Positions 2,611 through 41,864 of a stretch of 64,000 bases of DNA are shown piece by piece. Position 1 is the first letter of the stretch. Each line of letters begins with the position of its first letter. The position numbers were made by a program, and so were the translations under genes. Source of the DNA: Candidatus Lustribacter sp. (GTDB lineage Bacteria > Vulcanimicrobiota > Vulcanimicrobiia > Vulcanimicrobiales > Vulcanimicrobiaceae); contig OZ255842.1 in NCBI GenBank assembly GCA_965277805.1, positions 768,001-832,000 of the forward strand, read 5' to 3'. The notes beneath the pieces are model-generated. The model did no database searches and had not been told where the DNA came from. It saw nothing but the letters and a program-made list of their open reading frames with translations.

Positions 2611-3599
2611 TGCGCCGGAGCGAATTTCTCGCTGCGGGTGCGGCGGCTGCCGGCGTCACGGCGACCGGGTTGCCGGCGCGCGCTTCGACGACGGTGACGA
2701 CCCAGCTGCAGTGGATCAAGGATTCGCAAAACGCCGGCTGGTGGGTTGCGGACGCCGACGGCTACTTTCGTGCCGCCGGCATCGACTCGACCGTGTTGGC
2801 CGGCGGCCCGAACATGTCGCAGCTCGAGGCCGTCGTCGATGCCGGCCGCGCGGACGTCAGCTTCGATACGCTCGAACGCGTCATCGACGCCAATGCCGCC
2901 GGCACCGATCTCGTGATCATCGGCGCGCTCTATCAGCACAATCCGCTGGCGATTCTGTCGCTGCCCAAGAATCCGATCCGCAGCCCGCGCGATCTGCTCG
3001 GCAAACGGCTCGGTTTGCAGCAGGGCGGCAACGTCTATGTGGATGCGATCTTGGCGCTGAACCACTTGCCGAAGACGTATACCGAAATCGTTGTCGGATC
3101 GACGCCGGATCCGTTACTGCAGGGCGCGTGCGACGGATTTTTGTCGTTCATCACCAACGAACCGCTGGTCTTGGCCGCGCGCGGCATTCCCTACGTTACC
3201 GCGACCTTCGAGCAACTCGGCTACTACACGTATGCGGATTGCCTGTTCTGCCGCCGCGACTACATCCGCGCGAACCGCGATCTGCTGGTGCGCTACTTGC
3301 GCGCACTGCAGCGCGGCTGGGCGGTGAGCGTGCGGGATCCGGAGCTTGCAGCCCGGCTCACCGTAACGACCTACGGCACGGGGCTCGGACTGGACGAGCG
3401 CAAGGAATTACTCACCAGCCGCGCTCAAGCGCCGCTGTTCGTGAGCGACGAGACGCGCGCGCACGGCATGCTGTGGATCGACAAAGAGCGCGTGGCGGGG
3501 CCGGTCTATACGACGTTGCGCGCGACGGGGCGAACGAATCTGCCGCCGGTGGACCGCTTGATCGATACGTCGCTGCTCGTCGAGGCGGCGCGCACCTGA
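2610..3599 (+). CDS. ABC substrate-binding protein, NMT1/THI5-like, Tat-type leader
   Basis: MRRSEFLAAG leader; QLQWI...GYFRAAGID motif. Confidence 0.88.
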   Translation: MRRSEFLAAGAAAAGVTATGLPARASTTVTTQLQWIKDSQNAGWWVADADGYFRAAGIDSTVLAGGPNMSQLEAVVDAGRADVSFDTLERVIDANAAGTDLVIIGALYQHNPLAILSLPKNPIRSPRDLLGKRLGLQQGGNVYVDAILALNHLPKTYTEIVVGSTPDPLLQGACDGFLSFITNEPLVLAARGIPYVTATFEQLGYYTYADCLFCRRDYIRANRDLLVRYLRALQRGWAVSVRDPELAARLTVTTYGTGLGLDERKELLTSRAQAPLFVSDETRAHGMLWIDKERVAGPVYTTLRATGRTNLPPVDRLIDTSLLVEAART

Positions 3600-3600
3600 C

Positions 3601-4935
3601 TTAGGACACCGGCCACGTTCCCGCGATCGGCAGGCCGAACTGTTGTCGCAGGCGTGCAGCGGCCGTACGCGCGCGCGCACGGATGGCGCTTTCATCGGCG
3701 CCGGTGACGCGGCCGTCGCGCACCACGAAGCTGCCGCCGACCATCACGGTTGCGACGTTGCTGCCGTTGGCCGCGAAGACGAGGTTCGAGACGACGTCGT
3801 GAATGGGCGTCGTGTGCGCACGATCGAGGTCGACGAGAACGATATCGGCCAGTTTGCCGGCTTCGAGCGAGCCCAAATCGCGCCCGCGGCCGATGGCGCG
3901 CGCGCTGCCGAGCGTGGCCAGTTCGAGCACCGTTTGCGCCGGCACGGTCGCAGCGCGCCGCCGCATCGCGTTGTGCAAGAGCGTGGCGGTCTTCATCTCC
4001 GCGAACATGTCGTGACTGTTGTTGTTGAGGCCGCCGTCGGTTCCGAGCCCGACGCTGACGCCGGCGGCGAGGGCGTCGGGCAGCGGAAAGATCCCGGTTG
4101 CCATCTTCATGTTGGCGACCGGACTGTGCGCGAGATGCGTACCGGTATCGGCCAGCAAGCGTAGTTCGTCCGGCGTCACGGAGCTGCCGCCGATCAGCAG
4201 AACGTTGGGGCCGAGCACGCCGTTGACGTGCGACCATTGCGCGGGGCGCATGCCGAAGGTGTTGTCCATGTAGTACGAGTCTTCGATTTCGGAACAAAAG
4301 TGATACGTGATCCCGACGCCGAGTTCGCGCGCATCTGCGGCGACGCGGTGGTAGAACTCCGGAAAATAGCCGTCGCCGGGCCGGCGCGGAATCATCAAGC
4401 CGAACCACATCTGCACGCGCCCGGCGCCCGCACCGTTCCAGCGCCGCACGTCGGCGGCTGCGGTCTCGTCGCCGGGCTCGGTCCAGCGTGCGAGCACGGC
4501 CCGGATCCCCAAGCGTTCGATCTCGGCGGTCAAGGCGGCCAGGTCGTCGCGCGGATCGACGTTCGGGCTGACGAAGCACGTCGTTCCGGCGAGCAGCATC
4601 TCGATGGTGCTCAGAGCGTAAGCGGTGAGGGTATCGGCCGGATCCCGCTCGCGCAGATACGGCTCGACGATCTCATCGAGAAAGGGCATCCAATGCCGCT
4701 CGTCGCCGAGGCCGCGCAGCAGTGATTGATCGGCGTGACCGTGCGTATCGATCAGGCCCGGGATCGCGACCATTCCGCCGCCGTCGAAGCGCTCGGCGGC
4801 CGGATAGCGCGCGCGCAGATCGCGTGCTTTGCCGACCTCGGCGATGCGTTCGCCGTCGACGGCGATCGCCGCTTCGGCGACGATCCGCCGCGTTGCATCG
4901 ACGGTCACGGCCGTGACGTTGTCGATCAGGAGCAC
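3601..4935 (-). CDS. Metal-dependent amidohydrolase (MtaD/AtzA-like deaminase family)
   Basis: PGLIDTHGH, HSPVANMK, GLGTDG, GSLEAGKLADIV motifs. Confidence 0.88.
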   Translation of the reverse strand: MLLIDNVTAVTVDATRRIVAEAAIAVDGERIAEVGKARDLRARYPAAERFDGGGMVAIPGLIDTHGHADQSLLRGLGDERHWMPFLDEIVEPYLRERDPADTLTAYALSTIEMLLAGTTCFVSPNVDPRDDLAALTAEIERLGIRAVLARWTEPGDETAAADVRRWNGAGAGRVQMWFGLMIPRRPGDGYFPEFYHRVAADARELGVGITYHFCSEIEDSYYMDNTFGMRPAQWSHVNGVLGPNVLLIGGSSVTPDELRLLADTGTHLAHSPVANMKMATGIFPLPDALAAGVSVGLGTDGGLNNNSHDMFAEMKTATLLHNAMRRRAATVPAQTVLELATLGSARAIGRGRDLGSLEAGKLADIVLVDLDRAHTTPIHDVVSNLVFAANGSNVATVMVGGSFVVRDGRVTGADESAIRARARTAAARLRQQFGLPIAGTWPVS

Positions 4936-35287: not shown

Positions 35288-35552
35288 AAATTCCTCGTCG
35301 GCCTGGACGCGATCTTATGAGGCAACGTACGTTTTGAAACCATCTCGAGAAGCCCATGCGCTTTCGCTAGCCTGCGAGTCGATCGACGCTTTATCGGCGT
35401 TGCAGCTGTGCTCGCAGAAACCCGGATCGTAAGTGTGGCTCTTTTCATTCGTTCGAGCGCTACGCTGTCCTGATCGAACACACGACGTAACGCATAGCGG
35501 AAGAACGCAGTCGTATGGGCACATTCGCGACTCCCGATATAGAAAAAACCCC

Positions 35553-35572
35553 GCCCCAACGGGATTCGAACC
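35553..35572 (-). repeat. att-site direct repeat (copy of the tRNA-Glu 3' end)
   Basis: GCCCCAACGGGATTCGAACC identical to 39927-39946. Confidence 0.9.
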
Positions 35573-35689
35573 GCTCAACACGGGTCCCGGCCGCTCCCGT
35601 TGGGTCCTCGAAAACCTTGCTACGTGAGGGTTTCTAGCGTCCGGGCGTCCTTTCGAGTCCCCTCGAAATTCGCCTAAAACCGTCGAGTC

Positions 35690-35707
35690 TGTGTCACCGT
35701 TGTGTCA
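35690..35707 (+). repeat. TGTGTCA-N4-TGTGTCA, candidate integrase arm sites (left)
   Basis: Same arrangement at 39846-39863. Confidence 0.7.
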
Positions 35708-36092
35708 CGACTTGGCGCACCGTTGCCTGGTGGCCGAGGCGGTCCTGGACCGTTGTAAGCGGAAGCCAAGCCGCCACCCGTTTGGGGGAGCACTTCCGTG
35801 AAGGAACGCGTTCGGGAATGGGCGGTCGAAGCGGGCCCTGTCGCTATGGGCTTCGGATTGGTAGTGGGCGGCATTATCTTTGTCGTCTGGTTGATTATGG
35901 CGTCGGAACGTCCCCTCGAATTGCTAGGCACATTTTTTCCGACCTTTTTAGGCCCGGCACCTGATGGACGAATTTGCCGCAAAGTGCGCCACCCGCAGTC
36001 CCGTTTATCGTCTTGCCGTTCGCAGTTGTCTTTTTCTGTGGGCTCGCTCGCGGACTTCTTGCGATTCGCAAAGCGCGTGCGATGCCTCCAGA

Positions 36093-36455
36093 ATGAAAAG
36101 CGCACTGGAGCGCCTTGCGGGCGCGCTTTCTAAGATGATAGCGAATGGAGTCGTGGGGATCGTTGGCCTGGCAGTAGTCCTTGCGATCGGTGCTTACGCC
36201 CTCTACGTCTTGTTCAGCGTCATTTACTTCGGTGGCAAATTCCTCATCGACACGGGGAATACGCTCGTTTGGCTGGTGCGTCACCCTCTTGAATTCGTGG
36301 TCGCCGTTGTTACGGGCGTATGGGACTTCGCGTCGACTTATATCATCGGAATGCTAGTACTCGGTCTTTTCTTCGCGGTCGGGTCGTGGCTGTTCGGTCT
36401 TGGCGAGAAGACTGCGGGCCCTATTGTTCAATTTCTGGACCGTCGACTGAAATAG
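36093..36455 (+). CDS. Hypothetical membrane protein
   Basis: Hydrophobic ORF from ATG 36093. Confidence 0.55.
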   Translation: MKSALERLAGALSKMIANGVVGIVGLAVVLAIGAYALYVLFSVIYFGGKFLIDTGNTLVWLVRHPLEFVVAVVTGVWDFASTYIIGMLVLGLFFAVGSWLFGLGEKTAGPIVQFLDRRLK

Positions 36456-36536
36456 TCCACTGTGGCTAGTATTTGTCGCTTTGGACGCGAGGTGCGCGGA
36501 TGACCGGACCGAATTTGCAAGAGGCGAGATCAACGT

Positions 36537-36794
36537 ATGCATCCTGAACTTGACGCACTTGGTAAAACCTACGCTGAGAAGCAAGTCGCGTTTATAGAGG
36601 TTAATCGACTGCTCGACGAATCGTCGGATAAACTTGTGACAACGAGTGTTTTTGATCCGGCCTTCTACGCACTGTCAGACGAACACACAAAGCGATTTGA
36701 AGCGTGGAGCAAGGTTGTCCATGAAATAAATGACGCCGCCCATCGCCTCGGAATCCGTGCACAAGAATTAGCAAATGAACAGCGACGTATGTAG
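36537..36794 (+). CDS. Hypothetical helical protein
   Basis: 85-aa ORF with upstream GAGG. Confidence 0.5.
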   Translation: MHPELDALGKTYAEKQVAFIEVNRLLDESSDKLVTTSVFDPAFYALSDEHTKRFEAWSKVVHEINDAAHRLGIRAQELANEQRRM

Positions 36795-36799
36795 CGCCC

Positions 36800-37304
36800 T
36801 CAATGTGTAAACGGACAACTGCATAGTTCAATAGCGGTGGGCGTCTCAGCGCGTAAATTCACGCCGAGGTTAGCCTCATCTACTCTTTCGAAATCCACGA
36901 GAAACGGCTTGTCTTTGAACCCGATGACTTCAATCCGGGTCTTCCCAGACCGCAACTTCTTGATTGCGCCGACCGCCGCTCTCTCATTGTTGGGCAGTAC
37001 GATGACCCCGTTCATGCAACGGTTCCCACTGAACCCCATCACAAGGGCGTGAAATGCGTTCGCCTTCCCGATCATCGCGTAGTCCGATGTGACGATGCAG
37101 GCCTGCCGCTCGAATGCCAATTGCAAAATGTGCGCGAAGTCCTCGTCTTCGCTGTGCGAGCCTTTGTAGGTGGCCTTCGGCATCGTCGTCTTCGAGTCGA
37201 TCATCATTGCCGGGTAGAACCGACATAAAGGCTTGGGCGTTGAAATTCTTGTCGATCACGAAAAGATGCTGCGGATAGAGTTCGGTCGACTGCCGCTTTC
37301 CCAT
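36800..37304 (-). pseudogene. Probable PIN-like (DUF5615/VapC45-type) protein split by a frameshift
   Basis: FVIDKN in one frame; EDEDFAHILQLAFERQACIVTSD in the adjacent frame. Confidence 0.45.
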
Positions 37305-37840
37305 ACGTAGAAATTCGCTCGAAATACCGGGTAGTCTTTCGGGTCTACCGGTAGACCGTTATGCAAGTCAGGGGTCACTGAAATGAGCATTGAATCACCA
37401 AACCCTGAAACGCAGGCCTGTTCCGCACTAAACTGAGCCTGAACCGACCCACACGAAACCCCAACAAAACAGGCTGATTCACCCAAGCCTGCCCGCATGA
37501 TCCCAGCGTGAAGCCGTTCTATGAGGCGGGTCCTGTATTTTGGACCACTTGTGACCACGAAAGCGGTGTGCGCTTTATGGGTTCCGGCGTTTTCATTGAG
37601 GCCACGTTATCGCCAAAAATGTTGCCCTGTGACGTGTCAATGTTCCTGAGACGGACGAGAACACTCGAACGGGACCTAGCGCCTCACACAGAGCCCGCAA
37701 GGGGCCTCTATGTGGCTCTTGGCGACCTGCCCCCGATCATCTTTGGATCACACGAAGGACGCGATCCAAAACAGGCACAATCGGTTTGTGGCTCATTACT
37801 GCGCGCTATGCGCGCTGGTCGTTGAAGGTGGCGACGCAAA

Positions 37841-39133
37841 ATGACATTTAGAACTCCGAAGATCGATGACTTTATCGCTTGGAAGATCAATGGCGGTCAC
37901 ATTGCCGCGCTAACTGCAGCCGCCTACAAAACGGAACTCGAACGCTTTCAAGAATTTTTGAACGAAAAAGAAGAGCAAAAAGCGATTTGGGCTGCTGATA
38001 AGCACGACGTCAGCCAATTCCTTGCACTAAAGCGCCAAACCAACGCGCCAACGACGACGCATCGGATTTTTGCACCGATTAAAGAGTTCTTCAAATATCT
38101 TCAGCACGAGCAACTTAGATCTGATAATCCTACAACGGGAATAAGACTTGCACGGATCGCGCGCCGGAATGACTCGCGGGTCACGTTGGCTCGCGCGGAC
38201 GTGCAGAAACTCTTGAACGCGCCAACGGGACGGTTGGCAGTGCGCGACAGAGCCATTATTCATTGCTTCTGTTCTGGTTTAAAGCGCAATGAAGTCCAGG
38301 CACTTTTGATCGGCGACGTAGACCTCGAAGCACGTAGGCTCAAGGTCGGCAATCGATTTGTGCCGCTTTCGGAACCAGCATGCGTTGCGCTCGCTGCCCA
38401 TTTGCAGGCGCGGCAAGCGAAGAGGTCGGCGATCTTATTCACTGCCGCTGCGAGGCATGCCGCGACTATGGGCTTGCGGCAATTGTGGCACGTCGTAAAA
38501 TCCAACGCGATGCGAGTCGGCCTCGACGAAGAGACAAGCCCGGAAACGCTAAGAACAACCTTTGTCGTCCACGCCATGGAAGATGGCATCACGTTCTTGG
38601 GCCTAATCGATGCTATCGGAACATATAATGATTTTTGGTTGCGCGACCTTTTAGAAGCCGCAAAGCCGGAATTCGCAAAGCGCAGTGCCGATCTTTCCGT
38701 GGGCGCTTTGGCGCATCGTGCTTATGGGCCGGGAAGAGAATATGATTTCTACATCGATCTCGCCTCGGAGATCGCTAAGGCTCAGGCGAACGTCTTCGTT
38801 ATTGATGCCTACATCGATGAAGATTTGTTTAACTTGTACGTTAGCAAGATTCCGGCTACGGCGAAGACACGGGTTTTGTCGATGAAGTTCGACGACAATG
38901 TCGAGAAAGTTGCATCGATGTTCTCAAGTCAACAGCCAATTCAGTTGCGAAAAACCAAGCATATTCACGATAGGCACATATTCATAGATGATCGTGGCTG
39001 GGCAGTTGGACAATCTATCAAAGAGGCGGGGAAGAAGAAGCCCACTTACCTCATTGAACTATCCGAACCTACGTTAAGCGCCGCGAGAGCCGCTTACGAG
39101 AGCCTCTGGAGCGCTGCTACCGTACTCATTTAG
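37841..39133 (+). CDS. XerC/D-like tyrosine recombinase with degenerate active site, fused to a C-terminal PLD-like domain
   Basis: SAM-like N-domain (TAAAYKTELERF...EFFKYL...NP), RDRAI, SPETLRTTF; C-terminal IDAYID and HDRHIFID...GQSIKEAGKK. Confidence 0.8.
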   Translation: MTFRTPKIDDFIAWKINGGHIAALTAAAYKTELERFQEFLNEKEEQKAIWAADKHDVSQFLALKRQTNAPTTTHRIFAPIKEFFKYLQHEQLRSDNPTTGIRLARIARRNDSRVTLARADVQKLLNAPTGRLAVRDRAIIHCFCSGLKRNEVQALLIGDVDLEARRLKVGNRFVPLSEPACVALAAHLQARQAKRSAILFTAAARHAATMGLRQLWHVVKSNAMRVGLDEETSPETLRTTFVVHAMEDGITFLGLIDAIGTYNDFWLRDLLEAAKPEFAKRSADLSVGALAHRAYGPGREYDFYIDLASEIAKAQANVFVIDAYIDEDLFNLYVSKIPATAKTRVLSMKFDDNVEKVASMFSSQQPIQLRKTKHIHDRHIFIDDRGWAVGQSIKEAGKKKPTYLIELSEPTLSAARAAYESLWSAATVLI

Positions 39134-39269
39134 CGCGACATCCTTTATTGTTTTAAGTTGGCTTTACGGGCGCCGGCTCTTAAATCGGTCACGAAAGCGG
39201 TATAGGCTATGCGTCGAAAGTAAATGGCGTCAGGTCCAATTACAACGGGTGAAGAGTTAGGACTGGGAC

Positions 39270-39839
39270 TTGAAAATAAAAAGCGTTATCGCGCGCAAGT
39301 TTAAACGGTTTGCCGACTTGGAGATCGTTGACTTGCCGGAGTCTGCTAGGCTTGTTGTTCTTGCTGGCCCAAATGGCTTCGGAAAGTCATCGCTATTTGA
39401 CGCATTTTTCACTTTCCATCACTTCTCAAGCGCGGGCAATCTCAACCGTGGGGTTCTTTCCGATGAGCGTGTTGTTGCAGTGATTCTCACTGCCTGTGTC
39501 CTGGTGAAGTGTAGCCCGAACGAGGCTCCGGGCCTTCGTTGGGTCAGCGCCATATGCCGTGGCGCGTTTCGGCTTCGTGATCTTCATGAGCACTTTCGCA
39601 GAATCGAGGGTTGTGCGAATCCGAGCCGGCCAGGTGCCCGTGAACACTTCTCGAAAATCCGGTTGCACGATCTGCGTCATACTCACGCGTCCCTCATGGC
39701 GATGGCCGGGCAATCACTTGACGTGATTTCGAAGCGACTCGGACATTCCAACATCGCGATCACGGCCGAGAGGTACCTGTCCGTCTACACCTCGCGAGAT
39801 GAAGCGGCGTCGGAGGCCTTCGCTACCCTCCTACGCTGA
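39270..39839 (+). pseudogene. Chimeric remnant: ABC/SMC-type AAA ATPase N-terminus joined to an integrase catalytic C-terminus
   Basis: MKIKS...FKRF...GPNGFGKSS, then RLHDLRHTHAS...KRLGHSNIAITAERY. Confidence 0.75.
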
Positions 39840-39845
39840 AGGTTC

Positions 39846-39863
39846 TGTGTCAGGAATGTGTCA
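39846..39863 (+). repeat. TGTGTCA-N4-TGTGTCA, candidate integrase arm sites (right)
   Basis: Matches 35690-35707. Confidence 0.7.
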
Positions 39864-39890
39864 TGGAGGCACATTCTCGACACCGTACAT

Positions 39891-39918
39891 AGAAAAAACC
39901 CCGCCGTAGCGAGGTTTT
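39891..39918 (-). terminator. Terminator downstream of the tRNAs
   Basis: Minus strand AAAACCTCGC-TACG-GCGGGGTTTTTT. Confidence 0.75.
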
Positions 39919-39924
39919 GAGATT

Positions 39925-39997
39925 TAGCCCCAACGGGATTCGAACCCGTGTTACCGCCGTGAGAGGGCGACGTCCTAGGCCTCTAGACGATAGGGCC
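39925..39997 (-). tRNA. tRNA-Glu(CTC)
   Basis: GGCCCTA...TCGCC-CT-CTC-AC-GGCGG...GGTTCGAATCCC...TGGGGCTA cloverleaf; CCA not encoded. Confidence 0.95.
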
Positions 39998-40000
39998 GTT

Positions 40001-40669
40001 TTAAGCTCCCGGTGATGGACTCGAACCACCATAGGCAGAATCAGAACCTGCAGTCCTACCGTTAGACGAACCGGGATCACCATTCGATTTTCGAAGATTT
40101 CTGGCGGCGAAGGTATCAGTTTGACTGTGACAGTTGGGACAGAGCATCCGAAGATTCTCCAGCCGATGGTCGTCACGCACACCGTTGACGTGGTCGATTT
40201 GGATGCTCAGCGGGCGGCCCCTCCATTCACTAAGACCGCACCAGTCGCAACGGTTTACGATTATACCAGCTTTGAGCAAGCGGCGTTTGATGGTTAGCCG
40301 GCTCGTTGAAGTAGCGACGGCCTCCTCGGCCGTCCAGACCTTCGTCGGCTTGGGAACGATGCGTCCAGCCTTCACCGCTTTGGTCCATGAAGCGGATGAG
40401 AAGCCGAAACGGCTCCGGCACTCCCGATAGCTCGCGCCCCGGTAGTAACAAGACTGGATCTCGCCCCAGTCATATCGCCGCCTTGCCGCTTCGGAGAGTG
40501 CAGAGGGCGTCGCGACGACGATGTCGCCAAGCGCGATGGCCTTCTTCCACGTAGCGTGTGCTATCCCGAATCGCCTGTGGCAGCTGAGATAGCCATTCCC
40601 GTCGTCGATATACGCCTGCATCGCCTCCCAGTCGAAAAACTTGCGGCCATATTTCCCGTGCCTTCTCAT
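40001..40669 (-). CDS. HNH endonuclease with duplicated N-terminal helical repeat; 3' end overlaps tRNA-Gln
   Basis: CDWC...IQIDHVNGVRDDHRLENLRMLCPNCHSQT; stop TAA lies 3' of tRNA-Gln. Confidence 0.88.
   Translation of the reverse strand: MRRHGKYGRKFFDWEAMQAYIDDGNGYLSCHRRFGIAHATWKKAIALGDIVVATPSALSEAARRRYDWGEIQSCYYRGASYRECRSRFGFSSASWTKAVKAGRIVPKPTKVWTAEEAVATSTSRLTIKRRLLKAGIIVNRCDWCGLSEWRGRPLSIQIDHVNGVRDDHRLENLRMLCPNCHSQTDTFAARNLRKSNGDPGSSNGRTAGSDSAYGGSSPSPGA
40006..40076 (-). tRNA. tRNA-Gln(CTG)
   Basis: TCCCGGT...GCAGG-TT-CTG-AT-TCTGC...GGTTCGAGTCC...ACCGGGAG cloverleaf. Confidence 0.93.
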
Positions 40670-40683
40670 CGAACATATGTTCG
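40670..40683. promoter_or_regulatory. LexA (SOS) box, GAAC-N4-GTTC type
   Basis: Perfect palindrome CGAACATATGTTCG abutting the HNH ATG. Confidence 0.75.
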
Positions 40684-40690
40684 CATTAAG

Positions 40691-40719
40691 TTGTTACCAG
40701 CTTATTGCCGCAGTGTAAA
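40691..40719 (-). promoter_or_regulatory. Candidate sigma70 promoter of the HNH-tRNA unit
   Basis: Minus strand TTTACA-17 bp-TAACAA with TG extension. Confidence 0.45.
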
Positions 40720-40796
40720 GTTCGCCCGAGGCGGTATGATAGGGAGCCGGTGGGTGTGTGCCCGCCGCGGTCTTTCCGTAAGAGGAGTCGTTTTCG

Positions 40797-41864
40797 GTGC
40801 AGGCAGTCGTGCTGGTCGGTGGTGAGGGGACGCGTCTGCGCCCGCTAACGCTCGAGACCCCCAAACCCATGATCCCCGTCATGAACGTGCCCTTCCTCGA
40901 ACGCACGCTCGTGCGCCTCAAAGAGGCCGGTATCGACGACGTCATCCTCCCCGCCGGCTACCTGCCCGAGGCCATCACGAGCGCCTTCGGCGACGGCAGC
41001 CGCCTCGGCATGAGGGTCCGCTACGTGATCGAGGAGACGCCCCTCGGGACGGCCGGCGCACTCAAGAACGTCGAGCAGTACATCACCGGCCCGTTCTTCG
41101 TGCTCAACGGCGACGTCCTCACGAGCCTCGACCTGCGCGCCATGCTCGCCAACCACCAAGCTAAGGGCGGCGTCGCGAGCCTGCACCTCATTAAGGTCGA
41201 CGACCCGTCGGCCTTCGGCTGCGTCGTCCACGACGCTGACGGCCGCATCAGCGCCTTCGTCGAGAAGCCCAAGCGTGAAGACGCTCCGACGAACGAAGTC
41301 AACGCCGGCACCTACCTTCTTGAGAAGGCAGTCCTCGACGCGATCCCCGCCGGCCGCCCCGTCTCGATCGAGCGCGAAACGTTCCCCGAACTCATCGCGG
41401 CCGGCCAACGGCTCTACGCTTACACCACCGCCGATTACTGGATCGATTTAGGGAAGCCCGAGGCCTATCTCGGCGCTCACCGCGACATTTTCGACGGCAG
41501 AATGCCGCTCGGGCTGCAACCCGGGGTGAACGGGCCGGGTGCTAAGGGAGTACCTTCCTCCGCCATCATCCCGCCGGTCTTCGTCGGTCGCAACGTCCGC
41601 GTTGCCCCGGATGCGAAAATCGGACCATATACGGTTCTCGGTGACGATTGCGAGGTTGGCTCTGGTGCCGTGGTCGCCGACTCGCTCCTCTGGGATAACG
41701 TCGTCGTCGAAGCCGGTGCCAGCCTGGATTGGGCGATCGTCGCCAGCCGGGCGCACATCGGCGCGGGAGCCGTTGTCGGCCGAGGTTCGGTCATCGGTCA
41801 CGGAGCGGACATCGCTCCAAACGCAGCGGTCGGCGAAAACGCCCGCATCCCCGCCCCGGCCTAA
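40797..41864 (+). CDS. NDP-sugar pyrophosphorylase (mannose-1-phosphate guanylyltransferase-like)
   Basis: LVGGEGTRLRPLT...PKP, LNGD, VEKP, C-terminal hexapeptide repeats. Confidence 0.9.
   Translation: MQAVVLVGGEGTRLRPLTLETPKPMIPVMNVPFLERTLVRLKEAGIDDVILPAGYLPEAITSAFGDGSRLGMRVRYVIEETPLGTAGALKNVEQYITGPFFVLNGDVLTSLDLRAMLANHQAKGGVASLHLIKVDDPSAFGCVVHDADGRISAFVEKPKREDAPTNEVNAGTYLLEKAVLDAIPAGRPVSIERETFPELIAAGQRLYAYTTADYWIDLGKPEAYLGAHRDIFDGRMPLGLQPGVNGPGAKGVPSSAIIPPVFVGRNVRVAPDAKIGPYTVLGDDCEVGSGAVVADSLLWDNVVVEAGASLDWAIVASRAHIGAGAVVGRGSVIGHGADIAPNAAVGENARIPAPA

Follow-up and report, generated by a model that had tools for sequence, protein, structure and literature searches.

Genes for free-standing homing endonucleases are known among the transfer RNA (tRNA) genes of phages T4 and T5, where tRNA maturation trims their messages. 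In T4, segB is transcribed within a tRNA precursor, and when tRNA-Arg matures, the cut is reported to separate the stop codon of the gene from its final sense codon, by which, as the authors of that work propose, the message is impaired; a similar lowering of expression through processing of the tRNA precursor was proposed for the F-Tfl enzymes of T5 (PMC2330249). Here we describe an HNH nuclease gene in a window of 64,000 nucleotides (nt) from Candidatus Lustribacter sp. (assembly GCA_965277805.1, contig OZ255842.1, positions 768,001 to 832,000 of the forward strand), the window being the whole stretch of DNA analysed. The open reading frame (ORF) of the nuclease begins directly at a putative LexA operator and runs through an entire tRNA-Gln gene before reaching its stop codon. 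Removal of a nuclease stop codon by tRNA maturation is thus an already proposed idea, which is met here in a new setting.

The locus is best explained, with a probability of roughly 0.6, as a DNA-damage-inducible nuclease with two helix-turn-helix (HTH) units and an HNH domain, which belongs to the homing type found in phage tRNA clusters and has long been resident, and in which the run-through of the tRNA is a by-product of a lost promoter-and-stop segment. As judged from the motif evidence, LexA would bind CGAACATATGTTCG at the gene start and keep the nuclease off until DNA damage. The gene would be a mostly vertically inherited resident, in one family of Eremiobacterota, of the site between a nucleotidyl-transferase gene and a tRNA-Gln(CUG)/tRNA-Glu(CUC) pair. 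In the more frequent arrangement the ORF ends in the -10 box of the promoter of the tRNA pair. In the clade of the window the promoter-and-stop segment is missing, and the ORF abuts the tRNA and continues to the next stop; in the window that stop is not reached until the whole tRNA has been crossed, as two of three reading frames through its allele contain no stop. The 25-residue tail would then be a disordered by-product, as the structure model suggests. A single transcript would end at the hairpin at 39895-39918, a cut by ribonuclease P (RNase P) at 40076/40077 would leave a nuclease messenger RNA (mRNA) without a stop codon, and rescue by transfer-messenger RNA (tmRNA) would lower the nuclease output, by analogy with the proposal for T4 SegB. 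We regard this effect on the message as a tolerated or mildly useful side effect, and not as a selected switch.

The ORF is intact in the ORF listing of the window (222 amino acids, ATG start). On the minus strand the ATG occupies 40669-40667 and is directly preceded by CGAACATATGTTCG at 40683-40670. The third base of codon 198 is nucleotide 1 of tRNA-Gln, and 24 codons (residues 199-222) lie inside tRNA-Gln(CTG), where the tail reads ...DPGSSNGRTAGSDSAYGGSSPSPGA and is followed by TAA at 40003-40001, two bases past the discriminator. The ORF stop thus lies 74 nt beyond tRNA-Gln nucleotide 1 on the same strand, the position in which control of the SegB type would be expected. These coordinates agree throughout with an earlier reading made from the letters alone (hereafter the sequence-only reading), which had described a palindrome abutting the ATG of an intact HNH ORF and a frame spanning the whole tRNA-Gln(CTG) up to a TAA between tRNA-Gln and tRNA-Glu. 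The tRNA-Gln(CTG) has a U1-A72 pair and G73, and CCA is not encoded; it and tRNA-Glu(CTC) are each the sole copy in the genome, which is a single contig of 5.53 Mb with 64% G+C and encodes a tmRNA (120.1 bits).

Altogether 1610 protein relatives were obtained at E ≤ 0.001 from a large protein collection. The loci examined (117) comprised the best 80 of 527 matching genome stretches, 36 metagenome loci and the window; many of them are near-duplicates from related metagenomes, and trees were built with FastTree only. Counts refer to the 110 loci with an HNH motif, whose records are titled Eremiobacterota. Left out, as having no HNH motif by pattern, were L081, L112, L123, L124, L127, L128 and L129, of which L081, L112 and L124 still carry the tRNA-Gln/Glu pair. 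In 108 of the 110 loci the nuclease gene is followed, on its own strand, by tRNA-Gln(CTG) as the first gene, so that the adjacency, whose conservation in homologs the sequence-only reading had proposed to check, is conserved. This tRNA is directly adjacent in 99 loci and 414-673 nt away in 9 others, where a second, tandem HNH copy lies between (L044, L047, L070, L080, L114 and L117-L120) and the tRNA-proximal copy ends in the tRNA promoter; the tandem ORFs of L070, checked directly, are at about 3010-3603 and 3600-4169. tRNA-Glu(CTC) follows tRNA-Gln in all 98 loci long enough to judge, and the nucleotidyl-transferase gene is divergently upstream in 100 of 110. Many of the closest relatives share the tail '...KSNGxPGSSNGRTAxS..AY.GSSP', i.e. 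they also read into tRNA-Gln. The linkage of nuclease and tRNA is real and ancient. In a sample of the phylum (401 genomes including G000, the genome of the window) a match at E ≤ 0.001 was found in 258, a tally that takes in 11 genomes flagged as unpublished as well as weak non-orthologue matches such as G145; among the 400 other genomes, matches were in 244 of 296 of the window's family and 10 of 30 of a second family of the same class, with 3 weak ones elsewhere. One close relative, L078, has no downstream tRNA on the same strand, and the sequence that follows resembles tRNA-Glu in reverse complement, a hint that the tRNA pair has been inverted locally.

Two forms of the locus were distinguished by the distance from the HNH motif to the tRNA. 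The long form, which is the commoner one, has about 80-90 nt in this interval and contains the promoter TTGCAA, 17-18 nt, TAGTAT, followed by 12-20 nt to the tRNA; the ORF ends within these elements, its last Leu-Gln codons being TTGCAA and its stop TAG lying within TAGTAT. This promoter also immediately precedes the tRNA in the HNH-free genomes G161, G036, G203 and G141, and TTGCAA/TAGTAT is therefore the tRNA pair's own promoter. In the short form, which includes the window, only 30-61 nt separate motif and tRNA, and the promoter and the stop are absent; the clade of the window is without a promoter-and-stop segment of roughly 45 bp. The stop that the tRNA supplies in the short form is mostly TAG (tRNA positions 8-10) or TAA (13-15 or 19-21), and most of the ORF/tRNA overlaps measure 10-21 nt.

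Of the 99 directly adjacent loci, 50 have the stop ahead of the tRNA, 38 within it and 11 beyond it. The loss of the stop ahead of tRNA-Gln, which would have spoken against the sequence-only reading had it been private to this genome, is therefore shared by 49 of the 99. On a FastTree tree of 107 rows the short form fell mostly into one clade (44 rows, support 98), and the well-supported clade of the window holds 15 rows, 13 of them overlapping the tRNA; the class of the stop (before vs overlapping the tRNA) changes at least nine times on the same tree. All three frames are used by the 41 ORFs that extend as far as the tRNA (20, 8 and 13 ORFs), and the least used one (8 of 41) is the frame that stays free of stops in most tRNAs (34 of 47). 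In the tRNA-Gln allele of the window two of three frames are stop-free from end to end, so an ORF reaching the tRNA would often run through it by chance; run-through of the whole tRNA (11 of 99) is, if anything, rarer than random frames predict. The tail is thus most likely not a selected protein segment, and full run-through is best read as a chance outcome once the stop-bearing segment has gone.

Palindromes of the form GAAC-N4-GTTC are the LexA box type of Firmicutes, Actinobacteria and Chloroflexi. The genome has one lexA gene (226.6 bits) and 34 sites of CGAAC-N4-GTTCG, among which those with AT-rich spacers (ATAT, ATAC, AAGT, ACAG) are located 0-90 nt upstream of damage-response genes, i.e. 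recA, an imuA-like gene (RecA-like, 254 amino acids), a dnaE2-type gene, and the genes of a Y-family polymerase, an AlkB-like oxygenase and a class II ribonucleotide reductase. The box of the HNH gene is the identical 14-mer to that of the imuA-like gene, and the boxes of recA, dnaE2, the Y-family polymerase and the alkB-like gene are identical to it or differ by one spacer change; the box of lexA itself, CGAACATACGTTTG, has one mismatch. The bare core GAAC-N4-GTTC was not enriched within the window (3 found vs 1.5 expected), and because this count is not significant, the case for the box rests on the regulon-level evidence together with conservation: a perfect GAAC-N4-GTTC was present upstream of the gene in 55 of 106 readable loci, and in 13 of the 14 readable loci of the window's clade. 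The element CGAACATATGTTCG is very probably a genuine LexA operator. The LexA assignment of the sequence-only reading accordingly stands, with lexA present and the same motif at lexA, recA, the imuA-like gene, dnaE2, the Y-family polymerase gene and the alkB-like gene, and the upstream box that it had proposed to look for in homologs was recovered in these loci.

Compared with described LexA regulons based on GAAC-N4-GTTC, the genome is alike in having CGAACRNRYGTTCG-type 14-bp palindromes at lexA, recA, imuA/imuB/dnaE2-type genes and the nuclease gene, and unlike in that about half of the nuclease orthologues carry TGCCA-N6-TGGCA in place of the box. In the library searched, no description of the LexA regulon of this phylum was found, nothing on LexA in Eremiobacterota/Eremiobacter, nor anything linking LexA to tRNA-nested, homing-type HNH genes. 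Two observations were made beside these boxes. The class II ribonucleotide reductase gene (G000:C1:1457866-1462545), with its CGAACAAGTGTTCG box about 57 nt upstream, contains an intein with a LAGLIDADG domain. In L053, L057, L062, L082 and L107 a short repeat element, which reads in frame ...CHPERSEA/KSRD..., separates the LexA box from the HNH start codon and shifts the box 60-130 nt further upstream; a similar repeat element is found in L139 (G036), where the HNH gene is missing.

The second palindrome, TGCCA-N6-TGGCA(C), was as frequent as the LexA box: in the 110 loci, 46 had the palindrome only, 46 the LexA box only, 9 both and 5 neither, with 4 unreadable, so that an operator of a damage type, of either kind, is kept in 101 of 106 readable loci. 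At the HNH gene (upstream in relatives L016-L080) the palindrome is usually followed by TAGCAT, with the ATG about 6 nt later. In four of five palindrome-type genomes examined, it was also found about 55 nt before lexA, downstream of the LexA box (L144-L147); the fifth lexA locus had a broken lexA and neither motif. The genome of the window contains the palindrome 11 times at spacing 6, vs 1-2 times at spacings 4, 5, 7 and 8, with sites at recA (also LexA-boxed) and at genes for an RNase T-type exonuclease, Hsp20, a UPF0047 protein and a GGDEF-EAL protein; the sites are G000:C1:929579 (recA), 3534651, 2480951, 1364572, 915112 and six more, none of them within the window. As far as its genomic positions indicate, the palindrome may be the target of a further damage or stress regulator. 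This distribution supports that the nuclease belongs to a damage/stress response whichever operator is present. A sigma-54 reading of TGGCAC-N5-TTGC in the relatives was rejected, as the -12 element is not conserved and the left half-site TGCCA is.

Two candidate promoters were noted upstream of the ORF (Table 1). One of them overlaps the LexA box, and a similar candidate in the same place was seen in L094, L098, L022 and L018 as TTGGCA-16-TATGTT or CTGGCA-17-TATGTT; it was the only recurrent signal in a relaxed scan of 14 short-class loci. For the weaker one, farther upstream, L028 has TATCAT at the same distance. Promoter-like (sigma-70) sites at 9 of 12 matches were absent from 39800-40900, an internal promoter for the tRNAs was not recurrent at 8 of 12 in the 14 short-class loci, the 40 nt ahead of the tRNA lacked a TAnnnT hexamer, and a terminator-like site was not found between the ORF and the tRNAs. 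As no recognisable promoter or terminator separates them, the nuclease mRNA and the two tRNAs are probably one transcript, and the operator, nuclease, tRNA-Gln, tRNA-Glu and the hairpin at the far end probably form one transcription unit. Of public sequencing runs, eight of RNA or possibly of RNA contained only 4-7% of the sampled words, and three runs of unstated kind contained the stretch and may be its source. The four runs that were aligned, at 80% likeness, covered almost only the tRNA-Glu of other organisms and are uninformative on transcription; besides this they gave a single contig of low depth over the HNH core, and no cover spanned the junction of ORF and tRNA.

Table 1. Features of the nuclease-tRNA locus, in window coordinates.
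Feature	Position	Strand	Evidence and remarks
Intrinsic-terminator-like hairpin	39895..39918	-	10 pairs followed by a T-run, just after tRNA-Glu
tRNA-Glu(CTC)	39925..39997	-	ARAGORN and Rfam, 56.2 bits; 8 nt after tRNA-Gln
HTH-HTH-HNH nuclease ORF	40001..40669	-	Residues 1-197 conserved protein; 198-222 tail encoded across tRNA-Gln
tRNA-Gln(CTG)	40005/40006..40076	-	ARAGORN and Rfam, 49.3 bits; covered completely by the ORF
Putative LexA operator CGAACATATGTTCG	40670..40683	.	Abuts the ATG; genome regulon and orthologue conservation
Candidate promoter CTGGTA-17 nt-TATGTT	40672..40700	-	-10 element falls within the LexA box
Second candidate promoter CGGGCA-17 nt-TATCAT	40736..40764	-	Weak, inferred; 8 of 12 in relaxed scan; upstream of the box
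Nucleotidyl-transferase gene (NTP_transferase and hexapeptide repeats)	40797..41864	+	Pfam E 6e-50; divergent, conserved left flank

The protein scored 21.7 bits against the Pfam HNH model PF01844, marginally above the cut-off of 21.4, and matched two PHROG families of HNH endonucleases (E 3.6e-28 and 2.2e-21). In 41 aligned relatives (mean column identity 52%) the catalytic-type residues H160, N172 and H181 as well as the four cysteines of the zinc site, C141, C144, C177 and C180, were invariant. An AlphaFold 2 (AF2) model based on the 41-sequence alignment consists of two three-helix units, a helical linker and a beta-beta-alpha HNH core, with a predicted local distance difference test (pLDDT) of about 75-94 by block. 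Residues 148-181 were modelled as short strands followed by a helix (block pLDDT 81-90), and the tail of residues 196-222, with pLDDT <50, is predicted to be disordered. Foldseek with the whole model against PDB returned nothing at E ≤ 0.001, the best hit being 6ghc with E 0.32. The predicted beta-beta-alpha-metal core and the CxxC...CxxC zinc site resemble those of McrA-like and standalone HNH nucleases (PDB 6ghc, Cap5, the HNH protein of phage GVE2), from which the nuclease differs in its N-terminal domains, besides the non-significant Foldseek E-value. Some metagenome sources name relatives of the protein 'McrA', and the window nuclease should not be classed as such. Names offered by NCBIfam were rejected as sub-threshold (ZorE with 17 bits vs a cut-off of 600, IscB with 12 vs 175, and a cytochrome). 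A role as anticodon nuclease, with the HNH domain acting on tRNA, was set aside for lack of support, the relatives being DNA endonucleases.

One segment of the coding sequence stood out at the nucleotide level. The codons for IQIDHVN (about 40187-40207 of the window, some 125 nt before the tRNA) have unusually conserved synonymous sites in 41 short-class loci, with CAA at 98%, ATC at 95% and AAC at 93%, against saturated neighbouring codons. Convincing promoter-like hexamers were found in this block on neither strand.

The closest named relatives are phage genes. In a tblastn search of phage genomes 240 records matched; the best-covering match was hegA of Enterococcus phage vB_OCPT_Bop, with the note 'H-N-H endonuclease F-TflIV' (38.9% identity over residues 51-194, 73% of the query), which is placed between tRNA-Asn and tRNA-Ser within a run of tRNA genes. 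T5p073 of phage T5 (HTH and HNH) is 32.4% identical over residues 119-192 and follows tRNA-Ile at a distance of 24 nt within the T5 tRNA region, and the region of gp187 of Streptomyces phage EGole has tRNAs, none adjoining the gene. With two HTH units, an HNH domain and homology to phage genes annotated as hegA, F-TflIV or homing endonuclease, the protein falls within the homing family. The F-Tfl enzymes of T5 are reportedly site-specific endonucleases. Like F-TflI, F-TflII, F-TflIV, T5p073 and hegA, the window gene encodes an HTH-plus-HNH protein of about 200-230 amino acids and stands free at same-strand tRNA genes, the phage genes lying between them. Unlike them, it is chromosomal and bacterial, occupies one fixed site across a whole bacterial family, and has two N-terminal HTH repeats, a LexA box and no sign of recent transfer.

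To T4 SegB the likeness is one of arrangement, the gene being embedded in a tRNA transcription unit, and the principle proposed for it (PMC2330249) is the same as that put forward in the sequence-only reading. SegB differs in being a GIY-YIG and not an HNH enzyme, in being encoded by a phage gene with a single-codon overlap, and in not being under SOS control; its homing has been shown experimentally, whereas homing by the window nuclease would be putative. A literature search found nothing on a LexA-boxed HNH gene with tRNA overlap.

The site also occurs without the gene. Five genomes with no or only a weak match (G145, G161, G036, G203 and G141) all have the tRNA pair. In G145, of the same genus, identity to the window is 84% for the 5' end of the nucleotidyl-transferase gene and 91% for the tRNA pair; between these flanks lie 161 unrelated bases, where the window has 721 nt, and homology resumes exactly at tRNA nucleotide 1. 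The HNH gene is thus polymorphic for presence and absence at one precise genomic site, as a homing gene would be. In G036 the LexA box and the tRNA promoter are kept with only about 200 nt between them, which points to loss of the HNH gene. Across 3570 pairs drawn from 85 loci, the identities of the HNH protein (mean 56%) and of the flanking transferase (mean 65%) were correlated (Spearman 0.54), and no pair with a similar HNH gene in divergent flanks was found among the 85 loci, in a crude test made without a species tree. From these comparisons, the history of the gene looks mostly like long residence and vertical descent, with occasional loss and tandem duplication. The sequence-only reading had considered a tRNA-linked homing element; the phage tRNA-cluster relatives fit that idea, and current mobility is not supported, the divergence of HNH gene and flank being concordant.

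Several points weigh against the explanation by a damage-inducible resident with a by-product tail. Co-transcription, the transcription start and the processing were all inferred, and the RNA runs essentially covered the tRNA-Glu of other organisms. The hexamer TATGTT ends 2 nt before the ATG, too close for an ordinary transcription start. The sole tRNA-Gln(CUG) and tRNA-Glu(CUC) would be LexA-repressed in normal growth, which is awkward at 64% G+C and suggests an unrecognised promoter. The short, promoter-less form is stable across the clade of 44 rows, most members of which overlap the tRNA, and selection for the overlap could explain this stability equally well. The trees, finally, are from FastTree and include many near-duplicate loci of related metagenomes. 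In one alternative, the tRNA pair is expressed independently, from a promoter that escaped recognition within the 3' portion of the ORF, and the nuclease has a separate, rare mRNA; the overlap would then be without any regulatory effect. Constitutive need is expected for the only decoders of CUG and CUC type in a genome of such composition, the promoters of the phylum are uncharacterised, and the conserved synonymous block at IQIDHVN, about 125 nt before the tRNA in the short class, would suit an internal signal. Such a promoter would have to be reconciled with the scans, which gave no sigma-70-like site in 39800-40900, no recurrent internal site in 14 short-class loci (the sole recurrent signal overlapping the LexA box) and no TAnnnT in the last 40 nt before the tRNA, and upstream read-through would cross the tRNAs even with an internal promoter. 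We consider independent expression somewhat unlikely.

The sequence-only reading had suggested that tRNA processing and nuclease expression may be mutually exclusive. As an adaptive gate, the overlap would be under selection for this exclusion: the nuclease would be made only if the precursor is translated before RNase P acts, and would otherwise be tmRNA-tagged and destroyed. Stops inside or after the tRNA in 49 of 99 adjacent loci, overlap in 13 of the 15 rows of the window's clade, an encoded tmRNA, the absence of a terminator- or promoter-like site between ORF and tRNA, and the same logic as proposed for T4 SegB (PMC2330249) are all compatible with such a gate. Against it, the position of the stop and the frame are not conserved (at least nine changes of stop class; frames 20/8/13, with the most open frame, 34/47, the least used, 8/41); most overlaps measure only 10-21 nt, run-through is limited to 11 of 99 loci, the tail is predicted to be disordered, and in half of the family, the commoner form, the stop precedes the tRNA, which has a promoter of its own. 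The gate was therefore not upheld and appears distinctly improbable. For an element that is still actively homing, the HNH enzyme would cut an HNH-free allele near the 5' end of tRNA-Gln and be copied in by recombination, with SOS control timing its expression to periods of recombination. The presence/absence pattern at one precise site (G145, G161, G203 and G141 empty, and G036 with a box and no gene), the tandem second copies in 9 of 108 loci, the invariant catalytic residues, and nearest named relatives that are free-standing HNH homing endonucleases of phage tRNA clusters would fit this. Divergence of HNH gene and flank is concordant, however, with no near-identical HNH gene in divergent flanks; matches in the 400 other genomes are almost wholly confined to two families (244/296 and 10/30, with 3 weak ones elsewhere), and the insertion interrupts no recognisable target, so that ongoing homing seems unlikely. 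A decaying relic, i.e. a dead mobile gene with an eroded stop and no functional protein, would account for the lost stop, the absence of the gene from some close relatives and the marginal Pfam score (21.7 vs 21.4 bits), and is hardly credible given an intact frame, HNH and zinc-binding residues invariant in 41 relatives at a mean column identity of 52%, folded domains modelled with confidence, and a damage-type operator in 101 of 106 readable loci.

If the by-product explanation holds, a conserved tRNA sequence can silently lengthen a neighbouring ORF, and such extensions are not to be equated with function. Beyond the phage precedents, the locus shows a homologous HNH gene that is chromosomally fixed across a family of the little-studied Eremiobacterota, is wired to damage operators, and is physically joined to a tRNA pair that looks essential, either at its promoter or at its body. 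The boxes also provide a first sketch of an SOS regulon for the phylum, and the junctions with the stop before, inside or after the tRNA form a natural series for studying how tRNA processing affects an upstream message. The locus is a possible case of tRNA genes that now depend on a damage-controlled promoter. In its strongest version, which we put forward as a long shot, the tRNA pair in the window's clade has lost its own promoter and is made solely as the 3' part of the LexA-controlled nuclease transcript, coupling SOS response, tRNA supply and self-limitation of the nuclease. DNA damage would then raise the capacity to decode CAG and GAG, release of the tRNA by RNase P would make the nuclease message stop-less, with tmRNA capping the nuclease dose, and this chromosomal coupling would be carried by a domesticated relative of phage tRNA-cluster homing endonucleases.

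The other side of the tRNA pair adjoins a degraded integrative element (35551-39946). A repeat of the tRNA-Glu 3' end (20 of 22 positions) is found at 35551-35572 on the minus strand, 4.35 kb from tRNA-Glu, and a similar 22-nt repeat occurs in G145 about 10 kb from its own tRNA-Glu. Between the repeats of the window lie a tyrosine-recombinase gene of 430 amino acids (37841-39133) and a chimeric ORF (39270-39839), in which a P-loop N-terminus is joined to a C-terminal fragment of an integrase.

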